Below are positions 20,817-49,490 of a DNA stretch of 64,000 nucleotides, in pieces (the first letter of the stretch is position 1; the number at the start of each line of letters is the position of its first letter). Below the pieces are notes generated by a model. It was given only the letters and a program-made list of their open reading frames with translations, ran no database searches and had not been told where the DNA came from. Made by a program: the position numbers and the translations under genes. Location of the stretch: positions 15,520 through 79,519 of the forward strand of contig JBGVKG010000017.1 in assembly GCA_045123575.1 (NCBI GenBank), in the 5' to 3' direction. This stretch comes from Lachnospiraceae bacterium. Its GTDB lineage: Bacteria; Bacillota; Clostridia; Lachnospirales; Lachnospiraceae.

Positions 20817-21503
20817 TTATAACTGTTCAAGTCTATCTGGCAGCTTACCTAATATAATATTAAGATTGCCATTTCTACATCTGATTGAGTCTATAAACTG
20901 CTTCTCGCTAACACCTGGTTTCATATCCACAATATATGTAAGCTCATAAAGCGTTCCCAAGTTTGTTGTTCTAACTCTCTCAAGCTCATATCTCTTTGTA
21001 TACTCTGAAAATAAATCGTCGAATATGCCTTCATAATCAAGATTCTCTGGTATAGTTACTCTAAGCTGCTTTGTAACCGCTCTCTTTACACCAAACTTCA
21101 TTCTTCCTAAAACCAAGTAATACAAACCTATAATAACTGTTACTATAACTGCTATAGTTATGTATCCCATACCTGTTGAAAGACCAACTGCCATAGCAAA
21201 GAAAACATTAGTAATATCCTTTGAATTACCTGGTACACTTCTAAATCTAACAAGTGCAAATACACCGCCAAGAGATATTGCTCTAGCAATATCTGAGCCA
21301 ACAACCATGATAACAACAGTTACAATAGCTGGCAATATAGCTAAACTAAATGCAAATGGTGATGAATATTTCTTTTCCTTGTCACTAAACATATAAATCA
21401 AGCTAATAACAAGACCCAATATAATACCTGTAACTATACAAGTAAGTCCTGCTTCTGTTGACACCGTACCTGTGGATGTTGTTTCTAGAATCGTGGTAAA
21501 CAT
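20817..21503 (-). CDS. DUF4956-family membrane protein
   Basis: 228 aa with 4 TM segments and GGVFALVRFRSVPGNSKDITNVFFAMAVGLSTGMG, the DUF4956 signature region. Overlaps the upstream VTC gene by 19 nt. Confidence 0.65.
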   Translation of the reverse strand: MFTTILETTSTGTVSTEAGLTCIVTGIILGLVISLIYMFSDKEKKYSSPFAFSLAILPAIVTVVIMVVGSDIARAISLGGVFALVRFRSVPGNSKDITNVFFAMAVGLSTGMGYITIAVIVTVIIGLYYLVLGRMKFGVKRAVTKQLRVTIPENLDYEGIFDDLFSEYTKRYELERVRTTNLGTLYELTYIVDMKPGVSEKQFIDSIRCRNGNLNIILGKLPDRLEQL

Positions 21504-22240
21504 AATAAATTTTCTCCTTTTAATCCATGTTTTTCTATTAAGTATTTTTTGTATTCTGTTCCGTATTTTGAGAACGAAGTTGGTTGTACTCCTGCCTCAG
21601 ACAGTATCTTTGTAAACCATAATGGTACTGCCATAAAGCTTTTAACCTCCATAAGCCACAGTTCATTACCAACAAGCAATTCACCATGATTTCCATTTTC
21701 TAACCCTACGTCTGTTCTCCTAGTACGCATATTTGTGTCAAATGTAACTCTAAAGTCTGAATCACCCTTGGCAAAATATGCTCTTCTGTCATATGTAATA
21801 TATACCTTAGGCTCCAAATCGTATCTTTTCAAGAACCATTGAATCTCTGACAACACCTGCTTGTTAATATAATTACTGTCCTGCGGTGCTATACCATTAA
21901 GCGTCAGGTCATAGGCTTCTCTCAAACGTAGCTTTGTCCTACGTTTATTGACCAAGCCTTTATACTTTTTCTTAATCTCGAGAAATACCTTGTCATCTAA
22001 ACCTGGCACTCCATAACTTCTTAAACGTAGCTTTTCCTTGTATATAGGCTTGTCAATAGATGCTCTAATAATCGCATCATCTGATGTGTCATAATAAATA
22101 TTTGCAATATTGTAAAATCCACCATCACGACTATACTTATCAGCTTCCATATATTCATCAAGCCTATCTACTATAAACTTGTATGTTCTTTCATCGATTA
22201 GATACTTCTTCTCATATCGGCTAAAGACTTCAATAGCCAT
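21485..22240 (-). CDS. VTC-domain (polyphosphate polymerase-like, triphosphate-tunnel) protein
   Basis: 251 aa. SRYEKKYLI, NIYYDTSD, EKLRLRSY, FLEIKKKYKGLVNKRR and RVTFD match the beta-strand pattern of the bacterial VTC/CYTH-like domain. Confidence 0.65.
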   Translation of the reverse strand: MAIEVFSRYEKKYLIDERTYKFIVDRLDEYMEADKYSRDGGFYNIANIYYDTSDDAIIRASIDKPIYKEKLRLRSYGVPGLDDKVFLEIKKKYKGLVNKRRTKLRLREAYDLTLNGIAPQDSNYINKQVLSEIQWFLKRYDLEPKVYITYDRRAYFAKGDSDFRVTFDTNMRTRRTDVGLENGNHGELLVGNELWLMEVKSFMAVPLWFTKILSEAGVQPTSFSKYGTEYKKYLIEKHGLKGENLLCLPRF

Positions 22241-22261: not shown

Positions 22262-23749
22262 CTACTTTACAGGCATCTGCGCCACCTTAAGTTCAAACCA
22301 AAAGATTGTACCCTCGTTTTCTTTGCTGCTCACACCAAACTGCGCATGATGAAGCTTCAGTACATTCTTCACTATGGATAAACCTAAGCCAGTTCCCATC
22401 ATAGCTCTCTTGTGGCTCTTATCCACCTTGTAATATCTCTCCCAAACGTTTTCTAACTCTTCTACAGCAATACCTGCACCCGTGTCAGCCACCTCTATAC
22501 GCACTATACTGCCTGCAACTCTTTGAGTCACTATTACGGTCTTATCCTCACCCGTATAGTTTATAGCATTATTTACCAGATTGTAAATCACCTGATATAT
22601 CTTGTACTCATCTGCATATACAGTTACATGTCTATCAAAATCGAATTTGATCTTATAGCCATTTTGCTCCATAAACTTTGCATATCTATCTATAACTGAC
22701 TGAATACTTTCAGTTAAATCATACACTTTAAGTTCTAGTTCTGCAACACCGGCCTGTAACTTGGATATATCAAGCAAATCATTAACAAGTGTAGTAAGTC
22801 TCTTTGCCTCATCTATAACTACCTGCACATTTTCTGGTGTATTCTCCCCTGGCAAATCACGCATAACCTCTGAATATGCAGTAATCATCGTAAGAGGAGT
22901 TCTAAGGTCATGAGAAACATTTGCCAATAATTCTCTTTGCAGACCTTCAGCCTTTGCCAACTCAATGGTAGCATAATTTAATGTATCTGACAACTGAGCT
23001 ATCTCTTTATATCCCTGTCCGTCGAATGTTACTGTATAATCACCCTTGCCTAGTCTACTAGCAGATTTATTTATCTTAACAATAGGCTTGGAAACCTTAT
23101 AAGAAATAATAATAGCCATAATCAGGGCCAATATAACCATTATCACAGATATACACACTAACTGAACTCTAATAGTTTGTACTGTCGCATCTACTGGTGT
23201 AATAACAGAATTGATAATCACCGCCATCTTCATTCCATCAGCACGTTCATATAGATTTATCTTAATTATGCTCTCACTTGCAACCATCTCACCTATTCCA
23301 TGGAATCGCTCTGGAAAAAATATTTCAAACCTGTCATCGATATTAGGTATCTGAACACCTATATCATCACCCGCTATAATTTCAGAATAGCTACCGTCAT
23401 TTTGCGCAGCTTTGCTTATAAATTTAATTATTTCATCTCTGCGCATCTTATGAACATAGCATTGAGTATTCTGCTCTGAACTATACAATTCATTGCCATA
23501 CTGGTCAACTACAACCACGCATATATCGTATCTGGATGCCACTAATTCTAATCCTTCTGTCATATCATCAGCACCTAATATAGTTTCAACATTTGAGAAT
23601 ACATTTTCTAATTCATTTTTCTTTATCATCTTGTAGAATTCATCTAAATACATAGTCTGAAATATCCATAAAAGTGCCAATAGCACCCCTATAAAACCAA
23701 GCATATATATAAATATTTTCCACTTTATGCCTAACTTTCTGTTTTTCAA
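22262..23749 (-). CDS. Sensor histidine kinase (two TM, periplasmic loop, HAMP, HisKA, HATPase_c)
   Basis: 495 aa with H-box LANVSHDLRTPLT, N-box NLVNNAINYT, G-boxes DTGAGI and GTGLGLSIV. Confidence 0.85.
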   Translation of the reverse strand: MKNRKLGIKWKIFIYMLGFIGVLLALLWIFQTMYLDEFYKMIKKNELENVFSNVETILGADDMTEGLELVASRYDICVVVVDQYGNELYSSEQNTQCYVHKMRRDEIIKFISKAAQNDGSYSEIIAGDDIGVQIPNIDDRFEIFFPERFHGIGEMVASESIIKINLYERADGMKMAVIINSVITPVDATVQTIRVQLVCISVIMVILALIMAIIISYKVSKPIVKINKSASRLGKGDYTVTFDGQGYKEIAQLSDTLNYATIELAKAEGLQRELLANVSHDLRTPLTMITAYSEVMRDLPGENTPENVQVVIDEAKRLTTLVNDLLDISKLQAGVAELELKVYDLTESIQSVIDRYAKFMEQNGYKIKFDFDRHVTVYADEYKIYQVIYNLVNNAINYTGEDKTVIVTQRVAGSIVRIEVADTGAGIAVEELENVWERYYKVDKSHKRAMMGTGLGLSIVKNVLKLHHAQFGVSSKENEGTIFWFELKVAQMPVK

Positions 23750-23899
23750 ATCAATGCCTCCACAACGTCAGTATTATATGCTTTTTGTATACATTACCTT
23801 CACTGCTTGATTGTAACATAAAAGCATAAGCCTTTCAATTATCATATAGTATAGATATACTATTTGATGTTTGTGTGAAAATCAGTTGAAAATAAATAA

Positions 23900-23943
23900 A
23901 AGATATATATAAATACTCCCGAAACCAAACTCGGTTTCGGGAG
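23900..23943 (-). terminator. Intrinsic terminator after the lipoprotein gene
   Basis: 11-bp stem ctcccgaaacc(23916-23926)/ggtttcgggag(23933-23943), followed on the minus strand by a U-rich tract. Confidence 0.65.
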
Positions 23944-23964
23944 GTTACATTATTCATAAATCAT

Positions 23965-25107
23965 TTACTTTACATATGAGAGAAAGTCTGACAGTTTATA
24001 TGTTCTAACAGTTAATCTTCCTTCCCAATTAAATTCTACATAATTATCTATAAACTCTGCTACTGACCAATGAGGTGCGCCGTACATCATGGCTATCTGA
24101 CTATCCAACTTTGCAGGTATCTGCATCCATTCAAATTCAATAGTTGTGATTTCACCATTTTTAGTTCTTTGAATTCTTAATAAATTACCATTATTATCAT
24201 AAGTAAAGTCTATGCATAATTCGGCTTCGTCATTAGTCAGCTTGACTATCTTTCCTTCACCATCAAAAGTATACTGGTCACCTTGCGCATTCTCAGATGT
24301 ACCATCACTATAATTATATACACGAGAAACCTCATAACCCCACCAGTTTGAAACGACAACCTCATCTACTTTTTTCTTATCACCACTTCCTGTATACAAA
24401 GGTGTTTTTCCATCTAGCTTTACATAACTTATAACAGTTTTAATATCACCTTTTTCGTCATAAGGTACTGTAGTAGCCTTACGTCTGATAGCTTCTACAT
24501 CACTACCATCTACATATGCCTCTCTAACTTCATCCTGTGTGATAGTATAGCTATCATTTCCATAACTATAAGTATATTTATACTCATACTTACTGTCCTC
24601 AACCAAATTACCTTCACCATCATATTCAAAATAAAAATTTGTCTGATCATAACTAGAGATACGGCCTTCATTATCCCACGCTATTACATATACTTCCTTG
24701 GATGATTCTTTGCCATTTTCAACCGACAGTCTAGTCAAGGTCGATGTTGTCTCATCATAGGTGATAGTCATCTCTTCACCTCTTTCAACATCCTTACCAA
24801 AGTCTTGCTTTTCCTCTATTATCTTAGTAATTCCATTCGAGTTAAACTCAAATATCATACTACTACGATTTACTTCACCCTTCCTTAATTCCCTAAGATT
24901 GTTCATTATAAAGGATGCATCCTTTAACTCACTGGTGTAAGTCACAGTTGATTCCCCTGAAGAATAAGTATATGTGGCCTTCTTCACAGTCCACGCCTTT
25001 TCCCCATTGTTCATTTCTCCTTTGCCTGCTGTAGCTCCACCATTGCCACAAGCTACCAATGACAACAGCAACATAACAGCTACTAGAAATAAAGATATTT
25101 TCTTCAT
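23965..25107 (-). CDS. Lipoprotein with YD-like repeats, function unknown
   Basis: 380 aa. Signal peptide plus lipobox LSLVAC|G. Recurring Y/F-x-Y/F-D-x-x-G-x-[LI] units (FEYDGEGNLV, YTFDGEGKIV, FTYDNNGNLL, WDNEGRIS). Confidence 0.6.
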   Translation of the reverse strand: MKKISLFLVAVMLLLSLVACGNGGATAGKGEMNNGEKAWTVKKATYTYSSGESTVTYTSELKDASFIMNNLRELRKGEVNRSSMIFEFNSNGITKIIEEKQDFGKDVERGEEMTITYDETTSTLTRLSVENGKESSKEVYVIAWDNEGRISSYDQTNFYFEYDGEGNLVEDSKYEYKYTYSYGNDSYTITQDEVREAYVDGSDVEAIRRKATTVPYDEKGDIKTVISYVKLDGKTPLYTGSGDKKKVDEVVVSNWWGYEVSRVYNYSDGTSENAQGDQYTFDGEGKIVKLTNDEAELCIDFTYDNNGNLLRIQRTKNGEITTIEFEWMQIPAKLDSQIAMMYGAPHWSVAEFIDNYVEFNWEGRLTVRTYKLSDFLSYVK

Positions 25108-25189
25108 ACGCTTTTCCCTCCTAATATAATATTTTAGTCACAAAATCCATTACTAAAATTATACCATAATCCTTATAATAAAGCAACTC

Positions 25190-25876
25190 TTAGCCCTCAA
25201 AACGGTACCCCACTCCACGCAATGTTATCAAATATTTCCTATACTCACCCAAGCTACTTCTAAGTAACTTTATATGTGTATCTAATGTTCTATCATCTCC
25301 AAAGTAATCATAGCCCCACACCTCTGATATAAGTTTCTCTCGTGTAAGCGCTATTCCTTTATTTCTGACCATATAGAAAAGCAAATCATACTCCTTTGGA
25401 GTCATAGTAGCCTTCTCTCCATCTATAGTTACTACTCTGCTAGTAAAATCTATAACCAAGCCCTCCTGTTTATAGACATCATGACCTTCATCCTCATTCT
25501 TCATAGACTTTGCCTGTCCATGTCGTGATATAACCACATTAACACGCATCATCAACTCCTTTGGCGAAAATGGTTTCACCACATAGTCATCTATACCAGC
25601 CTCAAAGCCATGTATCCTATCATACTCTTCACCTCTAGCCGAAAGCATAATAACCGGAATATCCTTAATCTTCTTTATCTCCTTGCAGGCAGAAAATCCG
25701 TCCAGCTCTGGCATCATCACATCAAGGATAATCAGGTCATAGTCATTTTCCTTGCACATCTCTATAGCTTCCATACCATCAGCTGCCTCACTTATATCAT
25801 AGCCTTCAAACTCAGCGTATTTCTTTATAATCAAACGAATCTTTTCTTCATCATCTACTACCAATATCTTGCTCAT
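25190..25876 (-). CDS. OmpR/PhoB-family response regulator
   Basis: 228 aa: receiver (VVDDE, ILDVMMP phospho-Asp, KPF) plus a winged-helix output (LTPKEYDLL, GVGYRF). Confidence 0.9.
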   Translation of the reverse strand: MSKILVVDDEEKIRLIIKKYAEFEGYDISEAADGMEAIEMCKENDYDLIILDVMMPELDGFSACKEIKKIKDIPVIMLSARGEEYDRIHGFEAGIDDYVVKPFSPKELMMRVNVVISRHGQAKSMKNEDEGHDVYKQEGLVIDFTSRVVTIDGEKATMTPKEYDLLFYMVRNKGIALTREKLISEVWGYDYFGDDRTLDTHIKLLRSSLGEYRKYLITLRGVGYRFEG

Positions 25877-26010: not shown

Positions 26011-26052
26011 GAAACACAAAACGACAGTTGCAAAAGAAACTGTCGTTTTTTT
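26011..26052 (-). terminator. Intrinsic terminator after the dlt-like operon
   Basis: 9-bp stem acgacagtt(26021-26029)/aactgtcgt(26038-26046), with U-rich tracts on both strands. Confidence 0.55.
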
Positions 26053-26074: not shown

Positions 26075-27025
26075 TTATAGTCCAAGTTTTGAATTCTCAA
26101 TAGCATCTTTCCATGATAAATACTTCTCTTCGTCACGATGATCAATAAGTTCAAACTGCTCTGCCAAATAAGAACCGAAATATCTTGAAACCTTTCTCGC
26201 ACCATTATGATTCAAATGATTGCCACCATCTCTTGTATCCTGTGCCCAATTAATATTTAACTCTTCAGACTTAAGATTCATATCAAGATACACAATCTTT
26301 TTTTCCTGAGCCCAATCATTTACGGAATTATACTTTTCATAAGTCCAATTTGTTGGAGCTGGAGTCGTAACTAAGAGTATCTGCGCACCATTTTCTTCAC
26401 AAAGTGCATAGATTTTCTCTAAGTATTCATCTACAAGGCCAGAAAATTCCATACGTCCGTCAGACTCTTTCATCCATTCCCCACCTTCATAGGCAATTGT
26501 GTCTGTACGAAGCTTAAAGCCTTTTCTAATACACTCAATATCTCTATCTGAAGCATCCGCAAGACCCAAATACTGTTTCCATCTGTTATGATGTTTTAAG
26601 ATTGGAAATATCTTTGCCGCATCATTTAATATGTCATACTCTACATCCTGCGTAGAACCTGCATAACGAAAGAAACAGTTTGTCTCTAACACAATCAATT
26701 CAGGTGACTGTGTTTCAAATGCTGTTTCCAAAATACTAATGGTATCACAAAGTCTCTGCGCTGAAGTTCCACAGATATATGATGTTATTCCATACTCTTT
26801 AAAAATCTGAAGTGGACTGTATGCAGAATATGTTTCACTATCTCCTACTACAATCACATCAATGGTATCGTTTTCTTCTTTTAACAAAGCTTTTCTCTTA
26901 CTTTCAACAGTAACAGCATTATAAATGTCACCTTTTGGCGCTAATGCCAATGATAAAAGAAATAATATCCCTGCTAAGCCGCCAAGAAATACGATACTAC
27001 CAAATATATTTTTCCATTTTTTCAT
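26075..27025 (-). CDS. Membrane-anchored SGNH-fold protein (DltD/PatB/AlgJ-like acyl-transfer partner)
   Basis: 316 aa with an N-terminal TM anchor, block I VVGDSETYS, and a C-terminal DGGNHLN block V-like motif. Last gene of the operon, 9 nt after the MBOAT gene. Confidence 0.6.
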   Translation of the reverse strand: MKKWKNIFGSIVFLGGLAGILFLLSLALAPKGDIYNAVTVESKRKALLKEENDTIDVIVVGDSETYSAYSPLQIFKEYGITSYICGTSAQRLCDTISILETAFETQSPELIVLETNCFFRYAGSTQDVEYDILNDAAKIFPILKHHNRWKQYLGLADASDRDIECIRKGFKLRTDTIAYEGGEWMKESDGRMEFSGLVDEYLEKIYALCEENGAQILLVTTPAPTNWTYEKYNSVNDWAQEKKIVYLDMNLKSEELNINWAQDTRDGGNHLNHNGARKVSRYFGSYLAEQFELIDHRDEEKYLSWKDAIENSKLGL

Positions 27026-27034
27026 TTTTATCTC

Positions 27035-28585
27035 CTAGTAACCTGCATAAATCATCTCAACAATTGTATAACCTACACCGTAAGCACCAAACAGAACGAC
27101 CACTACGGCACCTGCATACCATAAGCTCCATCTTGCTACAATGTTCCATCCTGCAATTGCCTCGCGAATTTTAACACCTTTTTCATGAAGTTTTCCTACA
27201 ATTGCCACGATGAGAATACCAATTGCCGCAATTATCAAATCTGCTGCATCCATTTTCAATAAAGTGATTTTATAGATAAGCTCTGTAATATTAAAATTGG
27301 TTACAATCTTTCCAAGCATCGCAAATCCATCTGTTAATGTATCTGCACGGAAGAATAATTCTCCAACATTAATGATTAAAAACATTTTAATTGCTTGGAA
27401 AACACGATATCTGCTTCCCTGTCGGTTGATATTTAACTTTTCTGCAAGTTTCTTAATTGGTGCTTCTGTGATATTTTCCAAAAAAATAAGCACAAAGTAA
27501 TACATACCGTAGAAAATAAATGTCCAATTTGCGCCATGCCACAAGCCATTACAAGACCATACGCAAAACAGCGCAATCGTAGGCGCCACAAACTGGCTCA
27601 CATTTCTACCGAAACGCTCTTTAAACTTTTTAGCAAAGTTCTTTACAGGTTTTGCTAACGACACTGGGTAAAAAATATAATCCTTAAAAAATGCACCAAG
27701 TGTAATATGCCATCTTCTCCAGAACTCTGACGCATCCTTGGCAGCAAATGGCTGACGGAAGTTTTCTGGAAGAGTCACTCCAAAAATCTCACCACTACCA
27801 ATAATAATGTCCATACATCCTGAGAATTCCATATAAAGTTGCGCTGTATAGCACACTACACCAAAGGCAATAATAGAACCATCCAGTTCCATATAATTGT
27901 CAAACACATATCCTACCGTCACATAAATACGATCTGCAATAACAATTTTTTTAAACAAACCCCACAGTATTCTCTGGTATCCAAACTTTAAATTCTTGAA
28001 GGCAATCTTTCTACCTTCATATAAACTATCTGCCACTTCCGCGAAACGACTGATTGGTCCTTCCATAACCTGTGGAAAGAAGCTTAAATACAATGCCATT
28101 TTAAATAGATTATGCTCTGCCTTCTGCTTGCCACGATAAACATCTGTCATATAGGCAATCATCTGCAAGGTGTAGAACGAAAGTCCAACGGGTACCATGA
28201 ACTTAATTGGCTCAAACTTCCATGCATCTGTGAACAAATTCACAAAATCAGATGCCGTCTGACCAAAGAAGTTTAAGTATTTTAGCATTACTAAAAGACC
28301 AACGGATGCTACTACCCCTACAGCAAGAACCCTTCTCTTTTTGTACGTAATTAATTTCGCATTTCCTTCAGTAGTTAACGCAACATTTTCAATCCAAATA
28401 CCAATGTAATGAGTAAAGACTGTCGCTCCGAGCAAATACATCAAAAGCTTTCCACTAATCAAATAGAAAAAGATATAGTTCGCTAGTAAAAGCACTCCTT
28501 TTCTAAATTTCTGTGGGCAAAGCTGATATACCAATATAACTGTAGGAAGGAAAATCGCAAAATATTCCAACAAATGATAGGACAT
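27035..28585 (-). CDS. MBOAT-family membrane O-acyltransferase (DltB/AlgI-like)
   Basis: 516 aa, polytopic, with the conserved histidine region FWRRWHITLGAFFKDYIFYP. Confidence 0.85.
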   Translation of the reverse strand: MSYHLLEYFAIFLPTVILVYQLCPQKFRKGVLLLANYIFFYLISGKLLMYLLGATVFTHYIGIWIENVALTTEGNAKLITYKKRRVLAVGVVASVGLLVMLKYLNFFGQTASDFVNLFTDAWKFEPIKFMVPVGLSFYTLQMIAYMTDVYRGKQKAEHNLFKMALYLSFFPQVMEGPISRFAEVADSLYEGRKIAFKNLKFGYQRILWGLFKKIVIADRIYVTVGYVFDNYMELDGSIIAFGVVCYTAQLYMEFSGCMDIIIGSGEIFGVTLPENFRQPFAAKDASEFWRRWHITLGAFFKDYIFYPVSLAKPVKNFAKKFKERFGRNVSQFVAPTIALFCVWSCNGLWHGANWTFIFYGMYYFVLIFLENITEAPIKKLAEKLNINRQGSRYRVFQAIKMFLIINVGELFFRADTLTDGFAMLGKIVTNFNITELIYKITLLKMDAADLIIAAIGILIVAIVGKLHEKGVKIREAIAGWNIVARWSLWYAGAVVVVLFGAYGVGYTIVEMIYAGY

Positions 28586-28586
28586 T

Positions 28587-28817
28587 CTACTCTTCTCCTC
28601 TTAATCTGCAAATCATTTCCCAAAGGCTCTGTGCAGAATTGAAGTTCTCTGCCACTAGCTCTACTGGTTCGATTTCGATTTCGAAGGCATCTTCGATTTC
28701 TGATACCAGCGATAAAATACTGAATGAATCTAAGATTTCATCATCGATTAATGTTGTACAATTTTCGTAATCTACTCCTGGCTGAATATCTTCTAAAATT
28801 TCAAGTAACTGTTCCAT
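28587..28817 (-). CDS. Acyl/aminoacyl carrier protein (DltC-like)
   Basis: 76 aa and acidic, with phosphopantetheine-attachment context DDEILDSFSILSLV. Confidence 0.75.
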   Translation of the reverse strand: MEQLLEILEDIQPGVDYENCTTLIDDEILDSFSILSLVSEIEDAFEIEIEPVELVAENFNSAQSLWEMICRLRGEE

Positions 28818-28821
28818 TTTC

Positions 28822-30009
28822 TTATCTCCTTTTTGAATTAAATATATTTGTTTCTACGATTTCTCTAATAACCATAAAACCATTTTCTTTCGAATAAAAT
28901 ACTACCTGTGGAAGTTCACGGCTCAAAAACAGCGCCATTCCTTCTGTTACAGAATATGCTCCACACTTTTCAAACACCAGACAGTCATCCTTTGCTAATG
29001 CTGGTAGCTGTACTCCCTTTAGAATCACATCATTTACAGTGCAAAGTGAACCACAAATATTCCAGGCAGTCATTTCTTCGGAAACATCCTGCTTCTGTGC
29101 CTTTATCAATTTCATATGCGGAATCTTCATTCCCATAATCTGACCATAATAGTTTAACTGGTGAATACCACCATCAACAATTGCATAATTAGTTCCTTCT
29201 GTTGTTTTCACATCTACAACCTTTGTAAGGTAATTCCCGCATTCACTTGCAATGAAACGTCCAAGCTCAATTGTAATATGCGAAAATGCATCCACTGTGT
29301 CAAGCACTGCTTTTAATTCCAACAACTGCTCATTTGCATCTAAAGGCTCATCTGTGGCAAAGTAAGTAACTCCAAGTCCTGGTCCATACTCAAGTTCCTT
29401 GGTCGGCACATCGTATGTTTCCTGAAGATACTTGCCGTACTCCTGAAGCATTACAATCTCCTTTTCTACCTTTTTTGCCTTTTTCTGGGTTCCAGAGTAA
29501 AAATGAATTCCTTCAAACTCCATAGTTGCATCTGCTTTTACCTGCATCAATACCTTTTCTAAAGTTTCTTTATCCATACCAAATTGATTGCCACTAGATA
29601 ATCTAAGAAGTACCTTAATCTTTGTTCGGTATTTTTGGCAAACCTCTGACAGAATCCGATAGTGTTCTGGCGATTCAATGGTAAAAATACCTTCACCTTT
29701 GCTTAAATCCATAATCCTATCCATGGATGCGAAGTTTTTGTTTACACCTGAAACAACAATTTTCTCAGGTGCAATTCCTTCTCTATAACAAATCTCGTAC
29801 TCTCCTGGTGAACAAACCTCGTATCTTTGCGTGTACGCATTCATTGGTCCAATCAAAAACGGATTTGCTTTCATTGCATAACATGCCGTGACTCTCTTAC
29901 CCAGACACGCTTGAATCAACTCCATACGTGCCTTCAGTACATCTAAATCAAACAAGTAGCATGGTGTTGCAAACTGGGCTTTCGCAAGTTCAATCACATT
30001 ATTCTCCAT
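28822..30009 (-). CDS. Fold-type III PLP-dependent decarboxylase (Orn/DAP/Arg decarboxylase family 2, LysA/BtrK-like)
   Basis: YAMKANP (PLP lysine), EYGPGLGV, IELGRFIAS, ICGSLCTVND and CGAYS motifs. Start set at MENNVIEL (30009), which is preceded by AGGAGG. Confidence 0.75.
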   Translation of the reverse strand: MENNVIELAKAQFATPCYLFDLDVLKARMELIQACLGKRVTACYAMKANPFLIGPMNAYTQRYEVCSPGEYEICYREGIAPEKIVVSGVNKNFASMDRIMDLSKGEGIFTIESPEHYRILSEVCQKYRTKIKVLLRLSSGNQFGMDKETLEKVLMQVKADATMEFEGIHFYSGTQKKAKKVEKEIVMLQEYGKYLQETYDVPTKELEYGPGLGVTYFATDEPLDANEQLLELKAVLDTVDAFSHITIELGRFIASECGNYLTKVVDVKTTEGTNYAIVDGGIHQLNYYGQIMGMKIPHMKLIKAQKQDVSEEMTAWNICGSLCTVNDVILKGVQLPALAKDDCLVFEKCGAYSVTEGMALFLSRELPQVVFYSKENGFMVIREIVETNIFNSKRR

Positions 30010-31522
30010 GCTTACCTCCTGTCTGATATAACTCTTTAAGATAATTACGGTCGATTTTTCCATTCTTTGTAAGTGGCATCTCTTCTACCTGCATAAAGAG
30101 ATTTGGAACCATATATTCTGGAACTTTTTTCTTCATATCATCGATAATCTCTTTCTTCTCAGAACATCCTACATAGAACGCCACCACACGATTTTTCCTT
30201 TCATCAAAGAATGTACATGCACGCTCTACACCACTTAAAGCATTCAAAGCTGTATCAATCTCTTCTAATTCAATACGATGGCCCATATGCTTAATCTGGA
30301 AATCTTTTCTTCCCGCAAAATACATCTGTCCATCTTTTCCATAGTACGCTAAATCACCTGTATGATAAATGAGCTCTGGATAATGTGTATTTAACGGATT
30401 CTGCGTGAATACCTTCGCTGTCATCTCTGGATTGTTATAGTATCCAAGCGCTAAAGCAGTTCCCGCTACACATACCTCACCAGGCTTTTCAGCTTCGCGT
30501 ACTTCCTTATTCTCATCATTCAAAAGGAATACCTGCTCATTTGGGAATGCATCACCCATTGGAAGCTTCTCATCTTCTGTAAACTCTCTATCTAATATGT
30601 AGTAAGTACAGTTACAGGTAATCTCTGTAGGTCCATAAAGGTTAACAAACATTGCTTCTGGATAATGTGCGCGCCACTGATTTAACTGCTTAATCGGCAT
30701 CATCTCGCCACTAAACATAATCTTATCAATTGCAGATGGCACTTTATATTTTAAGCCATGTAATCTGTTCAAAAGACACAATGCAGACACCGCCCAAATT
30801 AACGTTGTAACCTTATTGTCCTCAAGCATATCCACAACATTGTTAGGGAAACGGAAATATGCCTTTGGAATAATAATAAGAGTCGCACCTGTTTTTAAAC
30901 ACGAATAAATATCTTTTACCGATACATCGAAATCAAACGGAGCCTGATTACCAATAACATCCTTTTCAGTGATTCCAAAAATCTCCGTAAAAGGCTCAAT
31001 AAAATCAATGACCGAACGGTGACAGATAACAACACCCTTTGGTACTCCAGTCGATCCCGATGTAAAGATACCGTATAACGGATCTGTGTCCTTACTCTGC
31101 TTTCTGATGTCAGCAAGAAGCTTTTCGTCTACCTCATGACCGAGCTCAGATTCCTCAATCACAACACCGTTATAGCCTGTTTCCCCAAGTTTTTCCCTGT
31201 ATTCGCTTTTTGTAATTACAAGTTCTGGCTCTAAAACGCCAAAAATCTGAGCAATTCTTTGATATGGAAATGTTGGATCCACTAAAACATAAAAATCACC
31301 AGCTTCAACAATTCCCATGAAAATCTCTAAGGTATCTACGCTCTTTTCCATAAAAACTGCAACTGGTTTACGTATTCCTTGTCTTTTTGCTATATCTGTA
31401 CCAATCTCTCTTGCACGTTGATGGAGCTCACGATAAGTACACTGTTTCTTTTCATCCTTTGCTGCCAGCTTATCTGGATGTTTTTCCGCTGTCAGTTCAA
31501 GATATTCTAATATATTTTTCAT
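29999..31522 (-). CDS. Stand-alone amino-acid adenylation enzyme (DltA-like, ANL superfamily)
   Basis: 507 aa with cores A3 FTSGSTGVPKG, A4 region PFDFDVSV, A5 NLYGPTE, A7 YHTGDL, A8 GRKDFQIKHMGHRIELEEI and A10 PLTKNGKIDR. No C, T or TE domains. Confidence 0.85.
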   Translation of the reverse strand: MKNILEYLELTAEKHPDKLAAKDEKKQCTYRELHQRAREIGTDIAKRQGIRKPVAVFMEKSVDTLEIFMGIVEAGDFYVLVDPTFPYQRIAQIFGVLEPELVITKSEYREKLGETGYNGVVIEESELGHEVDEKLLADIRKQSKDTDPLYGIFTSGSTGVPKGVVICHRSVIDFIEPFTEIFGITEKDVIGNQAPFDFDVSVKDIYSCLKTGATLIIIPKAYFRFPNNVVDMLEDNKVTTLIWAVSALCLLNRLHGLKYKVPSAIDKIMFSGEMMPIKQLNQWRAHYPEAMFVNLYGPTEITCNCTYYILDREFTEDEKLPMGDAFPNEQVFLLNDENKEVREAEKPGEVCVAGTALALGYYNNPEMTAKVFTQNPLNTHYPELIYHTGDLAYYGKDGQMYFAGRKDFQIKHMGHRIELEEIDTALNALSGVERACTFFDERKNRVVAFYVGCSEKKEIIDDMKKKVPEYMVPNLFMQVEEMPLTKNGKIDRNYLKELYQTGGKHGE

Positions 31523-31584
31523 TATTTTCCCCTTCTATTTGTCCTTCAACAAAATATACTGTTTTTCTACAAAAACCACCGTCT

Positions 31585-31612
31585 ATTCTACCACTTTATT
31601 ATTAATTTGCAA
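31585..31612 (-). promoter_or_regulatory. Putative sigma-A promoter of the dlt-like operon
   Basis: Minus strand TTGCAA (31607-31612), 16-nt spacer ending in TGg, then TAGAAT (31585-31590), about 60 nt upstream of the adenylation-enzyme ATG. Confidence 0.35.
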
Positions 31613-32032
31613 GCTGATATTATAGAAAAAGAAGTCTATTCTAGCTCATCCGCTCAAACAGACTTCTCTTTTACACACTACTTTACCTCGTTAGGTTTGT
31701 TATCATAACTTTACCGCCTTCAGTCAGTTTATATTTTATTACCTGTTTTCCTTTTCCTGATATAGAATATGTACCATTTTCTTCAATTCTAAATACAAGG
31801 AGGTTAATTCTTATTTCTCCAACATTAATTCTTATTTATTGATAAAGTTAAACTCGTCTTACATGTCAACGAACTTGGATTATATGTTGAGTATATAATT
31901 AGCCTAAATGACCATCTAAAAACCTAAATGGCACTATTCACAAAATCATCATTTCACTTCTGCATTTTCATGTCAATTCATTTCCCTCCAATGGTCGTTT
32001 ATTTCGTCGAATGGTCGTTTTTGCTATTTTTA

Positions 32033-32073
32033 ACGTAAAAATAGCTTAGACAGAATTCAATTCCATCTAAGCT
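32033..32073 (-). terminator. Putative terminator of thrC
   Basis: 8-bp stem agcttaga(32043-32050)/tctaagct(32066-32073) with a 15-nt loop, followed on the minus strand by AUUUUU. Confidence 0.35.
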
Positions 32074-32106
32074 ACTTACATTCATACCTTATATATTTGT
32101 TCAGTT

Positions 32107-33591
32107 TTATAATCCCAAGAACTTCTTAACTGCGTCTGTCATCTCATCTACTTCAACTACTGTATCATGAAGTACTGGCGCTGTACGGATTTCTTCGATT
32201 GCGTTTGGAACAGCCACATTACCGATTCTGCTAAGTTCATCTACAAGCTCGAAATCGCCCATAGCATCATACTTAGGGTCGATAGCGTTCATAACGCTTC
32301 TTGTGAACTTGTATGGGCTAGCTGTTGATGCGATAACCGACTTAGTTGTATCGCCTGTAGCCTCCTTATACTTCTTGTACACCTTAGCAGCTACTGCTGT
32401 ATGTGTATCGATAACATATCCTGTATCCTCGTAGATAGCCTTAATGATATCTGCTGTCTCAGCCTCATTTGCATAGTTGCCATAGAAGTCTGCAAGCTCA
32501 GCCTTCATATCATCTGTAATATCATACTTACCAGCTGTGCTAAGAGCTGTCATAAGCTCCTTATTCTTAGCAGCATCACAGCCAGCTACTTTATAGATAA
32601 GTCTCTCAAGATTGCTTGAGATAAGGATATCCATAGAAGGTGATGTTGTAAGGATAAAGTCTCTGTTCTTATCATAGCTTCCTGTCTCAAAGAAGTCATA
32701 GAGAACCTTGTTATCATTTGAAGCACAGATAAGCTTGTCAATAGGAAGCCCCATATTCTTTGCATAATATGCCGCTAAGATATTACCAAAGTTACCTGTA
32801 GGTACTACAACATTTATCTTCTCACCATTCTCTATCTCACCCTCTGCTAAAAGCTTTGCGTATGAATATACATAATAAACTACCTGTGGTACAAGTCTAC
32901 CGATATTGATAGAGTTTGCTGAAGAGAACTGGAATCCAGCAGCGTCAAGCTCCTTCTCCAACTCCTTATTTCCAAATATAGCCTTCACACCGCTCTGAGC
33001 CTGGTCAAAGTTACCCTTGATACCTACTACATGTGTGTTGGCACCCTTCTGAGTAACCATCTGCTTCTCCTGGATAGGGCTAACGCCTCCCTTTGGATAG
33101 AACACTACGATACGAGTATTCTCTACATCTGCAAAGCCTGCAAGAGCTGCCTTACCTGTATCACCTGATGTAGCAGTTAAGATAACTATCTCATTCTTAA
33201 CATTATTCTTCTTAGCTGATGTTGTAAGAAGATGTGGCAATATAGAAAGTGCCATATCCTTAAACGCTATAGTAGCACCGTGGAACAACTCAAGATAATA
33301 TGCTCCATCTGCCTTAACGATAGGTGCTATCTCCTCTGTATCAAACTTTGAATCATACGCCTTCGCTATACAATTCTTAAGCTCCTCCTCTGTGAAATCT
33401 GTAAGGAATTCCTTCATAACAGTATAAGCAACTTCTTGATAGCTCATACCCTTCAATTCCTCTATATCTACTGAAAGCTTTGGTAACGAAACAGGTACGA
33501 ATAATCCTCCATCGCTTGCAAGACCCTTTAATATAGCCTGTGATGCTGTAACTGTTTCATCGCTTCTTGTACTCTTATACATTAATTCCAT
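32107..33591 (-). CDS. thrC: Threonine synthase (long form)
   Basis: 494 aa with YKSTRS near the N-terminus, the PLP-lysine context TIAFKDMAL, and TSGDTGKAA. Confidence 0.9.
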   Translation of the reverse strand: MELMYKSTRSDETVTASQAILKGLASDGGLFVPVSLPKLSVDIEELKGMSYQEVAYTVMKEFLTDFTEEELKNCIAKAYDSKFDTEEIAPIVKADGAYYLELFHGATIAFKDMALSILPHLLTTSAKKNNVKNEIVILTATSGDTGKAALAGFADVENTRIVVFYPKGGVSPIQEKQMVTQKGANTHVVGIKGNFDQAQSGVKAIFGNKELEKELDAAGFQFSSANSINIGRLVPQVVYYVYSYAKLLAEGEIENGEKINVVVPTGNFGNILAAYYAKNMGLPIDKLICASNDNKVLYDFFETGSYDKNRDFILTTSPSMDILISSNLERLIYKVAGCDAAKNKELMTALSTAGKYDITDDMKAELADFYGNYANEAETADIIKAIYEDTGYVIDTHTAVAAKVYKKYKEATGDTTKSVIASTASPYKFTRSVMNAIDPKYDAMGDFELVDELSRIGNVAVPNAIEEIRTAPVLHDTVVEVDEMTDAVKKFLGL

Positions 33592-34339: not shown

Positions 34340-35026
34340 TTATTTGTAAAAGTAGTGGTCCTGGTGCTTGAATAAGAATTCAAGCGCTGTGTTAAACCAG
34401 CTATTAGGTGATGTCTTCATACAGAAGTATATTGCACCCTCTGAGTAATCTTCACCGCGAAGTGCTCTGTTTACACAGTCTATAGTTTCTTCACTAGCTG
34501 TTACTCTCCAGTATCTTCCACCTGGTCTAGTTGGTGAGAACTGGTATGTTTTACCATTGTTTGCAAATACCACATCAGTGATATTGTTAGGGAACTTCCT
34601 TGGATGCTTAACTCTGTTAATAATAACATTAGCAACTAAAATCTTTCCCTTTTCGTCTTGATCACCGGCCTCTGCCTCAACAATAGTACATAATACCTTA
34701 TAATCTTCTTCTGTAAATTCCACAACATACTCTGGCTCTGCCACTATATGTTCTTCATTTTCCTGTTTTGTTGCTGTAGATGGTTCTTCATCTAAAGTTT
34801 CTTCGATCTGAACTTCGTTCTTTGTTACATTCTGTTCAGCGTAGTAAGTCCCGGGCGCACTATCATCTTCACTGTTTGTTTCTTCGATTGTACTCTCTGT
34901 TTCATTAACTGTTACGTTTGTAGTATTGTCTAGAGATGCTGCTACTGCTACGAGCACTAAGGCACTAGTTGTCATTGCAATGGCACCGCTAGGTATTTTG
35001 CTAAATACTGTCTTAATACTGTCCAT
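34340..35026 (-). CDS. Cell-wall hydrolase, SleB/Hydrolase_2 family, membrane-anchored
   Basis: 228 aa with an N-terminal signal anchor, an acidic linker, and a C-terminal LCTIVEAEAGDQDEKGKILVANVIINRV...YQFSP...ALRGEDYSEGAIYF typical of SleB-like domains. Confidence 0.7.
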   Translation of the reverse strand: MDSIKTVFSKIPSGAIAMTTSALVLVAVAASLDNTTNVTVNETESTIEETNSEDDSAPGTYYAEQNVTKNEVQIEETLDEEPSTATKQENEEHIVAEPEYVVEFTEEDYKVLCTIVEAEAGDQDEKGKILVANVIINRVKHPRKFPNNITDVVFANNGKTYQFSPTRPGGRYWRVTASEETIDCVNRALRGEDYSEGAIYFCMKTSPNSWFNTALEFLFKHQDHYFYK

Positions 35027-35324
35027 GATTTATCTCCTTTCAGTCCCGTTGGACCTAAGACGCATTATATTGTACCTGCCAACGACTGTCAACACTACCT
35101 CTTGAATTTTGGGAGTAATTGCCATCCATATTTTACCACAAAAAAGTAGCCACCCTACAAACATGCACAATAACCCCTTTATCACCAATCTAATTTTGTG
35201 CACTTTTACCATAACCGCTTTTTTCTGATAAAGTAGTAGTTATTAACTTTTTTCTTCTAATTTTTATAATTTCGTGTTAAAATGGGTTGTGAGACATATT
35301 TTTTTACTAAAATCGGAGGTCAAA

Positions 35325-36125
35325 ATGTACCCTGGAGTATTTAAAGCTACAAAAAAAGACGGTACTATTTACTATCGTTCTTCATTTACGCACAAAAGCA
35401 AACATATAAGTCTAGGTAGCTATTCTACGGAAAAGGATGCTCACAAGGCTTATGTAGAGGCCTCCAATATTATAACTTCCACCAAGTCTATAAAGATAAC
35501 TGATTATAATAAGAAGAAAAGGGTATTATCTTTCGAGAAATGGGTTGTGCTTATCAATTTCAAGGACAACGGCATGTACTTTAAGAATCCCATCTATCTG
35601 CGCCCCAAATACTTTGAGTATTATCTGGACAACGACCCTTATGCTCCACTTAAGTTTGATGTAGAGGACTTATTCTTCTACTCTACTCATAAGATAATGA
35701 GACGTGGAGGGCATCTTTTCGTAGCCGATTACGGTATGCAGCTAAATATTCAAAACCGTTACGGCATTAAGAACTTTGCAGTACCTGGCAAGGATTACAT
35801 ATTCATAAATGGCGATAATACTGACTATCGTTCACAGAATATAAAGATAATAAATAAGTACAATGGTGTTACTCTCATAGACGATGAGGGCACTCAACCT
35901 TTATATATTGCCAAGATACATATAAATGGTGATTATATTATAGGAAGATACTCAGATGAAATAGACGCTGCCATAGCATATAATAAAGCAGTAGACACAC
36001 TTACATCTAATGGCTTTAATATAGCTTATCAGCATAATTATATAGAAGAATTAAATAGTATCGGCTATACATCCAGATACAACAAAACAAAGATATCAAA
36101 AAAGCTAAGGGATTTACGCCCTTAG
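35325..36125 (+). CDS. Double AP2-domain DNA-binding protein with a degenerate HNH-like core
   Basis: Start set at MYPGVFK (GGAGG 8 nt upstream). AP2-like units YPGVFKATKKDGTIYYRSSF..GSYSTEKDAHKAYVEA and YNGVTLIDDEGTQPLYIAKIHINGDYIIGRYSDEIDAAIAYNKA. The central DYIFINGDNTDYRSQNI resembles an HNH_3 motif but lacks the histidine. Confidence 0.5.
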   Translation: MYPGVFKATKKDGTIYYRSSFTHKSKHISLGSYSTEKDAHKAYVEASNIITSTKSIKITDYNKKKRVLSFEKWVVLINFKDNGMYFKNPIYLRPKYFEYYLDNDPYAPLKFDVEDLFFYSTHKIMRRGGHLFVADYGMQLNIQNRYGIKNFAVPGKDYIFINGDNTDYRSQNIKIINKYNGVTLIDDEGTQPLYIAKIHINGDYIIGRYSDEIDAAIAYNKAVDTLTSNGFNIAYQHNYIEELNSIGYTSRYNKTKISKKLRDLRP

Positions 36126-37133
36126 CTTTTTCATTCCTTTGCCCATATATTTCATACCCGTAGCTATAGCTAATGTCAATGCAAGTATCAAAACATAAAA
36201 CACCGCATTACTGTCAATACTAAACACCTTCTCTTTCTTCAGTATCAATGCTAATTTCTCATATATCAGATATATTTCCAATGAATACATACCTATCCAC
36301 GAGAAAAATTTAGCAAATCCCCCATTGATGCCATAAACCTTTCTGGCTGTTGAGTTCATAAAGCACACCACCAGCACAAAAGACACTGTCCACAGTCCGT
36401 ATAGATACCTGACTATGCAATAGTACTGAAAGTGACTACTATATAGCAGAATATTCGTTACCACAAAGGTTATAAATGCTGCCACAAGCCACCAAGCAGA
36501 TATGGCATCATCATTTTTGGCTCTCTTTCCAAAATATATACCTACTACAAATATAGGAACGCGTGTCAATGCTATCTCCAGTCTGGCATAAAGCTCTGGC
36601 ATCCACAGCATCAGCAGCAGGTTGAATACCACCATAGCAACAACCATTGCCGTTACACCCAATCCTCTGAATCTCTCCACCACCTTGTATAATATAGGAA
36701 ATACTATATACATGGTGAGTATAAATGATAAAAACCAAAAATCTCTGTTGTCACTCTCAAAAAATGCAAGTAAAAATACTTTCTTAAAAAAATCAAATAT
36801 TCCTTCGGTTCCTACATATATATAGTAGGCAGCAGCTATGAGCATAGCCGATGGTATTATCCTCAGTAATCTTTTGGTATAGAAGCTTTTCACATCAGGA
36901 TTTTTTGAAAACGAATAATACAATCCAAACGCAGATACAAACAGGAATATGTCCACTCCTATATTGCCTAAGCTCTGTATGTAATTAAACACATTACACA
37001 AGAATACTGACGAAAAAATATCCTCAAAATGCAGTGAATATGAGTGGAATAGCATAACCGCCACGGTTGCTATTCCTATAAGCACACTCCTCTCCTCACT
37101 GATAGTACACAAATCAAACCTCTTATCTTTCAT
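36114..37133 (-). CDS. Acyltransferase family 3 (integral-membrane O-acyltransferase)
   Basis: 339 aa with about 10 TM segments. The N-terminal region IGIATVAVMLFHS and GNIGVDIFLFVSAFGL is typical of Acyl_transf_3. Confidence 0.7.
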   Translation of the reverse strand: MKDKRFDLCTISEERSVLIGIATVAVMLFHSYSLHFEDIFSSVFLCNVFNYIQSLGNIGVDIFLFVSAFGLYYSFSKNPDVKSFYTKRLLRIIPSAMLIAAAYYIYVGTEGIFDFFKKVFLLAFFESDNRDFWFLSFILTMYIVFPILYKVVERFRGLGVTAMVVAMVVFNLLLMLWMPELYARLEIALTRVPIFVVGIYFGKRAKNDDAISAWWLVAAFITFVVTNILLYSSHFQYYCIVRYLYGLWTVSFVLVVCFMNSTARKVYGINGGFAKFFSWIGMYSLEIYLIYEKLALILKKEKVFSIDSNAVFYVLILALTLAIATGMKYMGKGMKKLRA

Positions 37134-39436: not shown

Positions 39437-40155
39437 CCCTTTACCTCCTCTATCTTGTAACCTAATCCCCATACAACCTTGATATACCTTGGTTCCTTTG
39501 GATTTATCTCTATCTTTTCTCTGAGATGTCTTATATGTACCATAACAGTATTTTCCACAGCGTACCCGTCCTCATTCCATACACTTGTGTAAATATTCTC
39601 AGCAGAAAATATCTTGCCGGGATTCTTCATTAAAAGCTCTAATATCTTATACTCTGTTGCTGTCAGTTTCACACCATCTCCATCCACTGTTAGCTGCTTG
39701 TTATCAGTATCTAATTCTAGACCACCTATGGTTATTACGCTCTTATTATTATGTAACCCTTCACCCATAGTGCCTAGATGCATATACCTTCGTAAACTAG
39801 CACGAACCCTTGCCACAAGCTCCATAGGATTATATGGCTTAGATATGTAATCATCTGCTCCCACACTTAATCCTAATACCTTGTCAGTATCCTCTGACTT
39901 GGCAGACAACACTATAATAGGTATGTTCTTTGTCTGGCGTATACGCATTATAGCCGACAAACCGTCCATACGAGGCATCATGACATCTATAAGCATAAGG
40001 TGTATATCATTACTTATAATAGTATCCAAAGCCTCTAGGCCATCATAAGCCCTGAATACTTTATATCCCTCCTTCTCTAACAGAGTAGCTATAGCCTTCA
40101 CTATGTCCTTGTCATCATCCACTACCAATATGTTTGTCTTAAATCCTGTGTCCAT
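39433..40155 (-). CDS. OmpR/PhoB-family response regulator
   Basis: 240 aa: receiver (VVDDDKD, LIDVMMP, KPY) plus winged helix (LTATEYKILELL, GLGYKI). Confidence 0.9.
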   Translation of the reverse strand: MDTGFKTNILVVDDDKDIVKAIATLLEKEGYKVFRAYDGLEALDTIISNDIHLMLIDVMMPRMDGLSAIMRIRQTKNIPIIVLSAKSEDTDKVLGLSVGADDYISKPYNPMELVARVRASLRRYMHLGTMGEGLHNNKSVITIGGLELDTDNKQLTVDGDGVKLTATEYKILELLMKNPGKIFSAENIYTSVWNEDGYAVENTVMVHIRHLREKIEINPKEPRYIKVVWGLGYKIEEVKG

Positions 40156-49327: not shown

Positions 49328-49490
49328 AAGAATTCCTCATCTTTCTCTTTATAGTCACTATATTTTACAATTGCGTAAAACATATTTAAACGCATAAATA
49401 TACACTTTATATTAAACCCCAAAACACAAACAAAATCAAGCTATATATTTTTTCTTATGCAAATAATTATCATTATGCGAATTAGCTAAA

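Follow-up and report, generated by a model that had tools for sequence, protein, structure and literature searches.

Operon architecture

We analysed a 64,000-nt stretch of contig JBGVKG010000017.1 from a Lachnospiraceae bacterium (the window; all coordinates are window positions). Between 31522 and 26075 it carries five minus-strand genes which encode, in this order, a stand-alone amino-acid adenylation enzyme (A), a pyridoxal 5'-phosphate (PLP)-dependent decarboxylase (DC), a carrier protein (CP), a membrane-bound O-acyltransferase (MBOAT) plus a membrane-anchored SGNH-fold protein (G5) (Table 1). The genes are tightly packed: A and DC overlap by 11 nt and the following gaps are 4 nt (DC/CP), 1 nt (CP/MBOAT) and 9 nt (MBOAT/G5), exactly the spacing given in the initial annotation of this DNA. 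The description of the five genes in that annotation also held, from Pfam and NCBIfam domains and, for G5, from a fold match. All of the motifs that it quoted were found (FDFDVSV, YAMKANP, ELGRFI, CGSLCTVND, LDSF and RRWHITLGAFFKDY).

The longest open reading frame (ORF) for DC begins at 30063. The start is, however, likely to be the internal ATG at 30009, because an AGGAGG ribosome-binding site lies 6 nt 5' of it and because the resulting product agrees with a 395-amino-acid (aa) database protein (P0001). A promoter-like site is present upstream of A; this is weak evidence, since the number of such sites in the region is not above the expectation from shuffled sequence. Past G5 there is a hairpin that resembles an intrinsic terminator. 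Given these two signals, the five genes look like one transcription unit, apart from the response regulator gene downstream. Full-text literature searches found no description of this operon, and the database names for its genes are only 'diaminopimelate decarboxylase family protein', 'alanine racemase' and 'hypothetical protein'.

Table 1. Positions of the operon genes, associated signals and adjacent regulatory genes in the window
Feature	Position	Strand	Remarks
A, stand-alone amino-acid adenylation enzyme, DltA-like	29999-31522	-	507 aa
DC, fold-type III PLP decarboxylase, BtrK/SbnH/LysA clade	28822-30009	-	395 aa from internal ATG
CP, carrier protein	28587-28817	-	76 aa; phosphopantetheine attachment at Ser31 (LDSF)
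MBOAT acyltransferase, DltB-like core plus two extra C-terminal transmembrane helices	27035-28585	-	516 aa
C-terminal hexapeptide MIYAGY of the MBOAT, FxYxxF-type 'acyl shuttle' with predicted acyl-accepting Tyr	27038-27055	-	
G5, membrane-anchored extracytoplasmic SGNH-fold transferase, DltD-like role	26075-27025	-	316 aa
Promoter-like site upstream of A, TTGCAA-16-TAGAAT with extended TG	31585-31612	-	Consensus match only
Intrinsic-terminator-like hairpin, 12-bp stem then T-rich tail	26018-26049	-	26 nt past G5
OmpR-family response regulator, directly downstream of the operon	25190-25876	-	Pfam Response_reg and Trans_reg_C
Sensor histidine kinase partner, HAMP-HisKA-HATPase	22262-23749	-	Split from the regulator by a 1.45-kb insertion

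Conservation of the five-gene block

To survey related loci, we used one genome per species (GTDB representatives), scanned with patterns taken from the DC alignment. Relatives of DC were found in at least 576 stretches, and the synteny counts below are for the best 80 loci of these. The 80 loci come from Lachnospiraceae, Butyrivibrio, Roseburia, Dorea, Coprococcus, Blautia, Clostridium, Oscillospiraceae, Anaerobium and Erysipelothrix. The other four genes accompany DC in nearly all of them (A in 74/80, CP in 72/80, MBOAT in 77/80 and G5 in 73/80), and the loci that miss a gene are mostly at contig ends. With the gene set recurring in 72-77 of the 80 loci, the arrangement is not due to chance. 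The genes that flank the operon vary among lineages, so the five-gene block moves as a unit. Beyond the five genes, no neighbour occurs in more than about 20 of the 80 loci, the recurrent extras being two-component systems and ATP-binding cassette (ABC)/FtsX transporters. No racemase, mutase, aminotransferase or similar neighbour that might hint at the substrate is conserved among the 80 loci.

The DC-baited survey was complemented by using six distant G5 homologs (32-38% identity) as bait. Five of the six loci recovered (L086, L088, L089, L090 and L091) have the complete A-DC-CP-MBOAT-G5 set. No locus examined with either bait keeps A and CP without the decarboxylase, which is therefore an integral part of the operon rather than a passenger. 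The initial annotation had treated it as part of the operon; we found that the block is kept across Clostridia and further into Erysipelothrix, with the decarboxylase retained.

Many relatives have a doubled export half. Two MBOAT-SGNH pairs surround a single A-DC-CP trio in L030, L037, L045, L046, L058, L059, L063 and L066, and there are two tandem SGNH genes in L086 and L089. The doubled export half around a single trio suggests that one acyl-carrier pool serves two acceptors.

Adenylation enzyme and carrier protein

A is an AMP-binding protein that scored above the cutoff of the amino-acid adenylation model TIGR01733 (343.9 versus 317.4 bits). The two DltA models were next-best but below their cutoffs (326 versus 559.85 bits for TIGR01734 and 340 versus 476 bits for NF003417), and TIGR03098 was also below (214 versus 592 bits). 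We read the specificity code from alignments with LgrA, with GrsA-type motifs and with three DltA structures. The code is D199 V200 K203 (S246 or A247) M269 S271 L295 C303 N304 K489, in which K203 is position 239, and it can be compared with the DltA pocket D L M. M/L C T V A K in the Bacillus subtilis and B. cereus structures (M in B. subtilis at the variable position). D199 (Asp235) and K489 (Lys517) are both invariant. The whole code is invariant in 76 homologs except at position 299 (L, M or I) and position 322 (L, V or I).

The A pocket differs from that of DltA at six of the eight variable positions that could be confidently aligned. The substitutions, from DltA to A, include Met239 to Lys, Ala331 to Asn and, at the enantioselectivity position, Cys301 to Ser. 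With these differences and an invariant Lys239, the code is not that of a D-alanine enzyme, the specificity that the initial annotation wished to see checked. The scaffold is nonetheless DltA-like, as concluded from the code comparison together with the A4-A5 pocket region, for which DltA provides four of the five best Protein Data Bank (PDB) matches (ranks 2-5, after a prolyl-carrier-protein ligase). Judged from its side chains, the pocket looks no larger than that of DltA.

The invariant Lys at position 239 points to a loaded substrate with an additional anionic group, namely a carboxylate. In one Glu code, this position contacts the side-chain carboxylate. The Lys argues against D-alanine, beta-alanine, gamma-aminobutyrate (GABA) or lysine as the loaded species and therefore against decarboxylation before loading, whilst the small pocket, without an acidic residue for a second ammonium, argues against diaminopimelate (DAP). 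Aspartate is most likely the best-fitting substrate, with glutamate second. Thus, where the initial annotation had proposed a dicarboxylic or a diamino acid, the dicarboxylic option (Asp ahead of Glu) is favoured by Lys239 and the diamino option is disfavoured by the pocket.

CP scored barely above the cutoff of the PP-binding domain (PF00550, 20.9 versus 20.8 bits). Its best NCBIfam match was DltC (NF003464), below cutoff (28 versus 68 bits). The predicted attachment residue, Ser31, is invariant in 74 homologs.

Decarboxylase

The DC gene sits between the loader and carrier genes. The protein has the two domains of its family, Orn_Arg_deC_N (PF02784, 60.9 bits) and Orn_DAP_Arg_deC (PF00278, 55.8 bits), both above the gathering score. 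Its best NCBIfam match was TIGR03099 (176.7 bits versus a cutoff of 478.45) and its second was lysA (TIGR01048, 154.8 bits versus 297.9), both below cutoff. No second DC or lysA homolog is present in the 64-kb window.

By sequence against the PDB, the best match was the butirosin enzyme BtrK (2j66/7ru7; E 3.5e-32, identity ~24%), followed by the N-citryl-diaminopropionate decarboxylase SbnH (E 9e-26); the best LysA, from Helicobacter pylori, was at E 3.5e-23. With an AlphaFold2 (AF2) model of DC (pLDDT 87.5), BtrK was also first in a fold search (TM 0.89, E 1.2e-29). The BtrK/SbnH/AcsE/MccE/FigC group, whose substrates are conjugated amino acids, clusters with LysA (PMC7857480).

The fold search barely separates BtrK from LysA, so it is the residue-level comparison that carries the argument that DC is not LysA. 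This was made by alignment with H. pylori LysA (3c5q). The residue after the catalytic Cys is Thr in DC (C-T-V), as in BtrK and SbnH, whereas it is Glu in LysA (C-E-S). The specificity helix of LysA, N-D-F-L-R-P-S-L-Y with its Arg and Tyr, is replaced by G-I-H-Q-L-N-Y-Y-G-Q, and an 18-residue active-site loop ahead of the (N/K)-(Q/K)-F-G motif is deleted relative to LysA. The initial annotation had left the placement between LysA and BtrK; the PDB sequence and fold searches, the sub-cutoff lysA score and the missing LysA residues all place DC with BtrK.

The catalytic residues are intact. Across 82 homologs there is no variation at K47 (the PLP Lys), at E248 and R251 (ELGR), at the catalytic C323, or at D327 and Y352, from which the enzyme looks active. 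DC is predicted to act on a carrier-tethered aminoacyl group.

MBOAT and shuttle motif

The MBOAT scored above cutoff with Pfam PF03062 (49.4 bits versus 27) and below it with the DltB model TIGR04091 (133 bits versus 375). By sequence, DltB (6bug/8jem, E 4e-18) was its only match in the PDB. H293 and H350 align with both conserved DltB histidines (RWH and WHG motifs), which we take to be H289 and H336 in the published numbering, and of 88 homologs, 86 keep both and two have gaps there.

The protein is ~100 residues longer than DltB (about 400 aa). The extension past the catalytic His contains extra hydrophobic/transmembrane helices at about residues 445-463 and 482-503, and the chain then ends in the hexapeptide MIYAGY. 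Among ~80 full-length MBOAT homologs, all but one have a C-terminal (M/L/F)(I/M)YAx(Y/F). The single exception, the second copy in L035, ends in FLYFRF, which is also compatible with FxYxxF. A DltX-like ORF was found neither within the operon nor upstream of it in 31450-32150.

In the Dlt system, DltB moves D-alanine from DltC to the Tyr of an FxYxxF motif in the microprotein DltX, from where it passes to the DltD serine (PMC12148441). MBOATs that depend on acetyl-CoA, e.g. PatA, have no DltX; the motif is part of the MBOAT itself, C-terminal and borne on two additional transmembrane helices (PMC12148441). The same 2025 mechanistic paper states that MBOAT/SGNH pathways other than Dlt lack a carrier protein (PMC12148441). 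The system described here is therefore a hybrid of the Dlt type of donor, a carrier, and the PatA type of shuttle, fused to the MBOAT. The dltA-dltC-dltB-dltD logic of the initial annotation stands as regards the gene roles and is refined to dltA-dltC-(dltB+dltX)-dltD, with the shuttle fused to the MBOAT.

SGNH protein

G5 had no Pfam or NCBIfam match at E<=0.001, including no sequence-level match to a DltD model, and a relaxed search gave only a sub-threshold Lipase_GDSL_2 match (E 0.005). In an AF2 model built from 44 homologs (pLDDT 91.6), a transmembrane helix at the N terminus (about residues 2-29) precedes an SGNH fold. With this model, Foldseek returned SGNH hydrolases and esterases, with DltD (6pfx, E 2.5e-5, and 6o93) among the top matches. 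Since there is no DltD-model match by sequence, the likeness of G5 to DltD is one of fold and role and not of family membership.

In the Gly-Asp-Ser motif (G61-D62-S63), G61 and S63 are invariant and D62 is present in 62 of 83 homologs. D266 is kept in 81/83 and H270 in 80/83, the remaining rows being gaps plus one Q at 270. Ser63 is predicted to be the nucleophile. The family is very large and lacks a curated model: searched against 1.84 billion representatives, the G5 profile matched 3,530 clusters (50% identity) at E<=1e-30, and there is no Pfam model for it. One protein in the representative library (P0258, 924 aa) has two G5-like stretches, a tandem or fused SGNH form.

Comparison with known systems

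Each half of the system is of a known kind. What is new is that they occur together, that the shuttle is fused to an MBOAT fed by a carrier, and the acyl group that we predict. Among the closest known systems is Dlt (DltA/C/B/X/D), which likewise has a stand-alone adenylation enzyme, a small carrier, a two-His MBOAT and an anchored SGNH transferase. However, Dlt uses a separate DltX where the shuttle is fused here, and the operon adds an obligatory PLP decarboxylase. In addition, all of the operon proteins score below the Dlt cutoffs, and the A pocket has Lys239 in place of Met and Ser301 in place of Cys. PatA/PatB and the other acetyl-CoA-dependent pairs (O-acetylation of peptidoglycan, alginate and cellulose) share with the operon the two extra C-terminal helices with FxYxxF and the separate SGNH partner. 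They differ in using acyl-CoA without a carrier, whereas the operon encodes a carrier, a loader and a decarboxylase.

The other half has precedents in natural-product biosynthesis. In four systems, Glu, Asp or 3-methyl-Asp is attached to a stand-alone carrier as a thioester of its side-chain carboxyl and then loses the alpha-carboxylate to a decarboxylase, to give GABA-, beta-alanyl- or 3-aminoisobutyryl-S-carrier (PMC11284099, PMC11350588, PMC7183216). The loader is an ATP-grasp enzyme in BtrJ/I/K (butirosin) and CtaD/E/F (closthioamide) and an adenylation enzyme in VinN/L/O and FlvN/L/O (macrolactam starters). BtrK and CtaF belong to the type III PLP or Orn/DAP/Arg family, whilst VinO and FlvO are called only PLP-dependent decarboxylases; free aspartate is not a substrate of CtaF (PMC11284099, PMC11350588, PMC7183216 for all of these points). 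BtrJ/I/K and CtaD/E/F thus resemble the operon in the proposed decarboxylation of Glu- or Asp-S-carrier by an Orn/DAP/Arg-family PLP enzyme and differ from it in the loader and in sending their products to antibiotic biosynthesis rather than to an MBOAT. By composition, VinN/L/O and FlvN/L/O, which load Asp or 3-methyl-Asp, have the same trio of adenylation enzyme, stand-alone acyl carrier protein and PLP decarboxylase. They differ in belonging to actinomycete secondary metabolism, where the product is then protected by aminoacylation and transferred to a polyketide synthase.

TIGR03098 and TIGR03099, an exosortase A-associated ligase and PLP decarboxylase (hypothetical equivalogs), are a similar pair linked to exopolysaccharide loci. 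These are proteobacterial families, and the operon proteins score far below their cutoffs. To our knowledge, no MBOAT link has been made for this pair.

Proposed pathway and alternatives

By a small balance of probability, the reading that we prefer is a carrier-dependent MBOAT-SGNH system, a relative of Dlt, that acylates an envelope polymer with an acyl group remodelled on the carrier. In this pathway, A would activate an amino acid with an extra carboxylate, with L-aspartate through its side-chain carboxyl the likeliest and glutamate second, and load it as a thioester on the phosphopantetheine of Ser31. DC would strip the free alpha-carboxylate of the tethered residue to give beta-alanyl-S-carrier (or gamma-aminobutyryl-S-carrier). 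At the cytoplasmic face, the MBOAT would accept the aminoacyl group from the carrier, and its conserved His residues would pass it to the MIYAGY Tyr at the outer face. Finally, the group would pass to Ser63 of the anchored SGNH protein, which would transfer it as an ester to a teichoic acid or another wall polymer. Such an ester would add positive charge to the polymer and, with a two-component system in control, would probably protect against cationic antimicrobial peptides. The specific beta-alanyl or GABA outcome is put forward tentatively, at somewhat less than an even chance.

Several observations weigh against this reading. At the level of the fold, the lead of BtrK over LysA is marginal (E 1e-29 versus 2e-28), and the margin to SbnH is also small. 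The GGG phosphate loop is G-P-G in DC, and the PLP-stacking His169 (window about 29503-29505) is Gln in 32 of 82 homologs (39%); the chemistry could therefore differ from plain decarboxylation. The Gln169 homologs form a sub-clade (in L041-L085), mostly paired with MBOATs ending in FIYAQF, and the adenylation code is the same in the His169 and Gln169 sub-clades. Position 278 of that code is ambiguous, as three alignments gave three registers, although the candidates S246, A247 and L248 are all invariant or nearly so. Among solved structures, A as a whole is closest to DltA and to adenylation domains for alpha-amino acids, and more distant from the beta-amino-acid enzymes (HitB 188 bits, versus 400 for LgrA and 212 for DltA). 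Side-chain loading of Asp is therefore an assumption. Lastly, one of the G5-baited loci, L087, has two MBOAT-SGNH pairs and no A-DC-CP trio within 7 kb.

The nearest alternatives concern the loaded residue and what becomes of it. With the same architecture, meso- or LL-DAP could be loaded via one alpha-carboxyl and decarboxylated at its distal end on the carrier, giving lysyl-S-carrier and a lysylated polymer. DAP is abundant in these organisms, DC lies in the DAP-decarboxylase clade with lysA as its second NCBIfam match (155 bits), and the invariant K203 could hold the distal carboxylate. Even so, this is unlikely. From its side chains, the pocket seems to be of about the size of that of DltA, whose substrate is D-alanine, and it offers the distal ammonium no acidic residue. 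DC, for its part, is without the LysA features that grip the distal end of DAP, the Glu after Cys and the Arg/Tyr helix. Alternatively, DC might work on the free amino acid (Asp to beta-alanine, Glu to GABA or DAP to Lys) and A would then load the product. This would be the simplest reading of a 'biosynthetic' decarboxylase beside a ligase, and it was left open in the initial annotation, which placed the decarboxylation on or before the carrier. We consider it quite unlikely: a cationic K203 would be without a partner on beta-alanine or GABA and would repel Lys; the characterised decarboxylases encoded beside a loader and a carrier all act on tethered substrates, with CtaF refusing free Asp; and the best DC homologs act on conjugated substrates. 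Hence, of the two timings, that on the carrier is favoured and that before loading disfavoured, by Lys239 and by the published tethered-substrate precedents. The tethered residue could also undergo other PLP chemistry, either beta-decarboxylation of an alpha-loaded (D-)Asp-S-carrier to alanyl-S-carrier or epimerisation. This would suit a pocket that looks like that of DltA plus a carboxylate-binding Lys/Asn ('alanine plus COO-'), and DC has a weak Ala_racemase_N match, a homolog that one source calls alanine racemase and the frequent Gln169. However, the C-terminal domain is of the decarboxylase type, Cys323, Asp327 and Tyr352 are invariant and we know of no member of the Orn/DAP/Arg decarboxylase family that carries out beta-decarboxylation or racemisation, making such chemistry very unlikely.

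The remaining alternatives concern the destination of the acyl group and the identity of the operon. The group could go to a lipid of the membrane, to a protein or to a small molecule that is secreted rather than to a wall polymer; in favour of this, eukaryotic MBOATs acylate lipids and proteins, and no glycosyltransferase or teichoic-acid genes are consistently linked to the 80 loci. On the other hand, the SGNH domain is anchored outside the membrane, and the characterised bacterial MBOAT-SGNH pairs (Dlt, PatAB, alginate, cellulose) all modify extracytoplasmic polymers via the same motif (PMC12148441). We rate a non-polymer acceptor as quite unlikely, on a par with decarboxylation of the free amino acid. 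An ordinary, divergent dlt D-alanylation operon with a passenger housekeeping lysA, already disfavoured, has a chance close to negligible. The gene order resembles dltA-C-B-D, and DltA, DltB and DltC are the best named NCBIfam matches of the respective proteins, but all four Dlt models and lysA are far below their cutoffs and the pocket differs at six of eight positions. Furthermore, the decarboxylase stays with the block across families and in the SGNH-baited loci and is without the LysA substrate residues, and there is no DltX.

Dlt D-alanylation is the model for the tuning of surface charge in Gram-positive bacteria, for their resistance to cationic peptides and for their interaction with the host. 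If a polymer is indeed acylated with a group remodelled on the carrier, the operon would encode a second known carrier-protein-fed MBOAT-SGNH pathway and a previously unrecognised cationic envelope modification. The new ester substituent on Lachnospiraceae envelope polymers could then affect antimicrobial-peptide resistance, immune recognition and colonisation. The operon is common in dominant gut commensals, with a DC relative in at least 576 species genomes, and it ties thiotemplated 'natural-product' chemistry to cell-envelope biology. It is conceivable, if a little less probable than the opposite, that many gut Lachnospiraceae, Oscillospiraceae, Clostridium and Erysipelothrix esterify teichoic acid or a wall polysaccharide with beta-alanine (or GABA) that is made on the carrier from aspartate (or glutamate) and exported by the MBOAT with its built-in DltX-type Tyr shuttle, under antimicrobial-peptide-sensing control in some lineages.

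Genomic context and regulation

The response regulator encoded directly downstream (Table 1) may control the operon. Next to the operon, a two-component system is found in 16-17 of the 80 loci from the DC survey and four of the six G5-baited ones. At least six species (L030, L045, L046, L058, L059 and L063) have in common the order RR-HK-MBOAT-G5-A-DC-CP-MBOAT-G5-ABC-FtsX, where RR and HK are the response regulator and histidine kinase; the kinase is of roughly 337 aa and the FtsX-type permease of 687 aa in these species. In L059 (1960-15222), the only locus for which the kinase was checked, the 337-aa kinase was best matched over its full length by SapS, which we take to be a BceS-type peptide-antibiotic sensor. 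The transporter at this locus consists of an ABC ATPase and a 687-aa FtsX-type permease in a BceAB-like arrangement. The kinase/regulator and ABC/FtsX flanks resemble a Bce-type antimicrobial-peptide module, a setting that is typical for the regulation of dlt and mprF. By association only, this supports a role for the operon in surface charge and antimicrobial-peptide resistance.

In the window, the regulator and kinase genes are separated by a 1,450-bp insertion (23738-25187) relative to the metagenomic contigs L001-L003. These three contigs, 99.5% identical and of the same species, have overlapping regulator and kinase genes. Within the insertion, an ORF at 23965-25107 encodes a 380-aa protein whose N terminus is lipoprotein-like and in which no Pfam domain was found. 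The insertion may uncouple this two-component system. An overlapping pair encoding VTC-domain and DUF4956 proteins lies a short way downstream of the kinase gene, at 20817-22240, and is the same in L001-L003.

Further along the window, at about 49300-50200, the GC skew changes from negative to positive and the gene orientation from minus to plus. We considered a replication origin at about 50 kb and rejected it, as the ORFs at 50177-50746 and 50805-52205 contain no DnaA or other Pfam domain. Upstream of the operon, a lone plus-strand ORF (35274-36125, 283 aa) lies amid minus-strand genes and has a weak AP2-domain match (E 0.022). It is absent from L002, whose genes upstream of threonine synthase differ. 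The same upstream region contains further envelope-related genes, encoding a SleB-type cell-wall hydrolase (34340-35026), an AT3-family acyltransferase (36114-37133) and a second two-component system (37193-40155).

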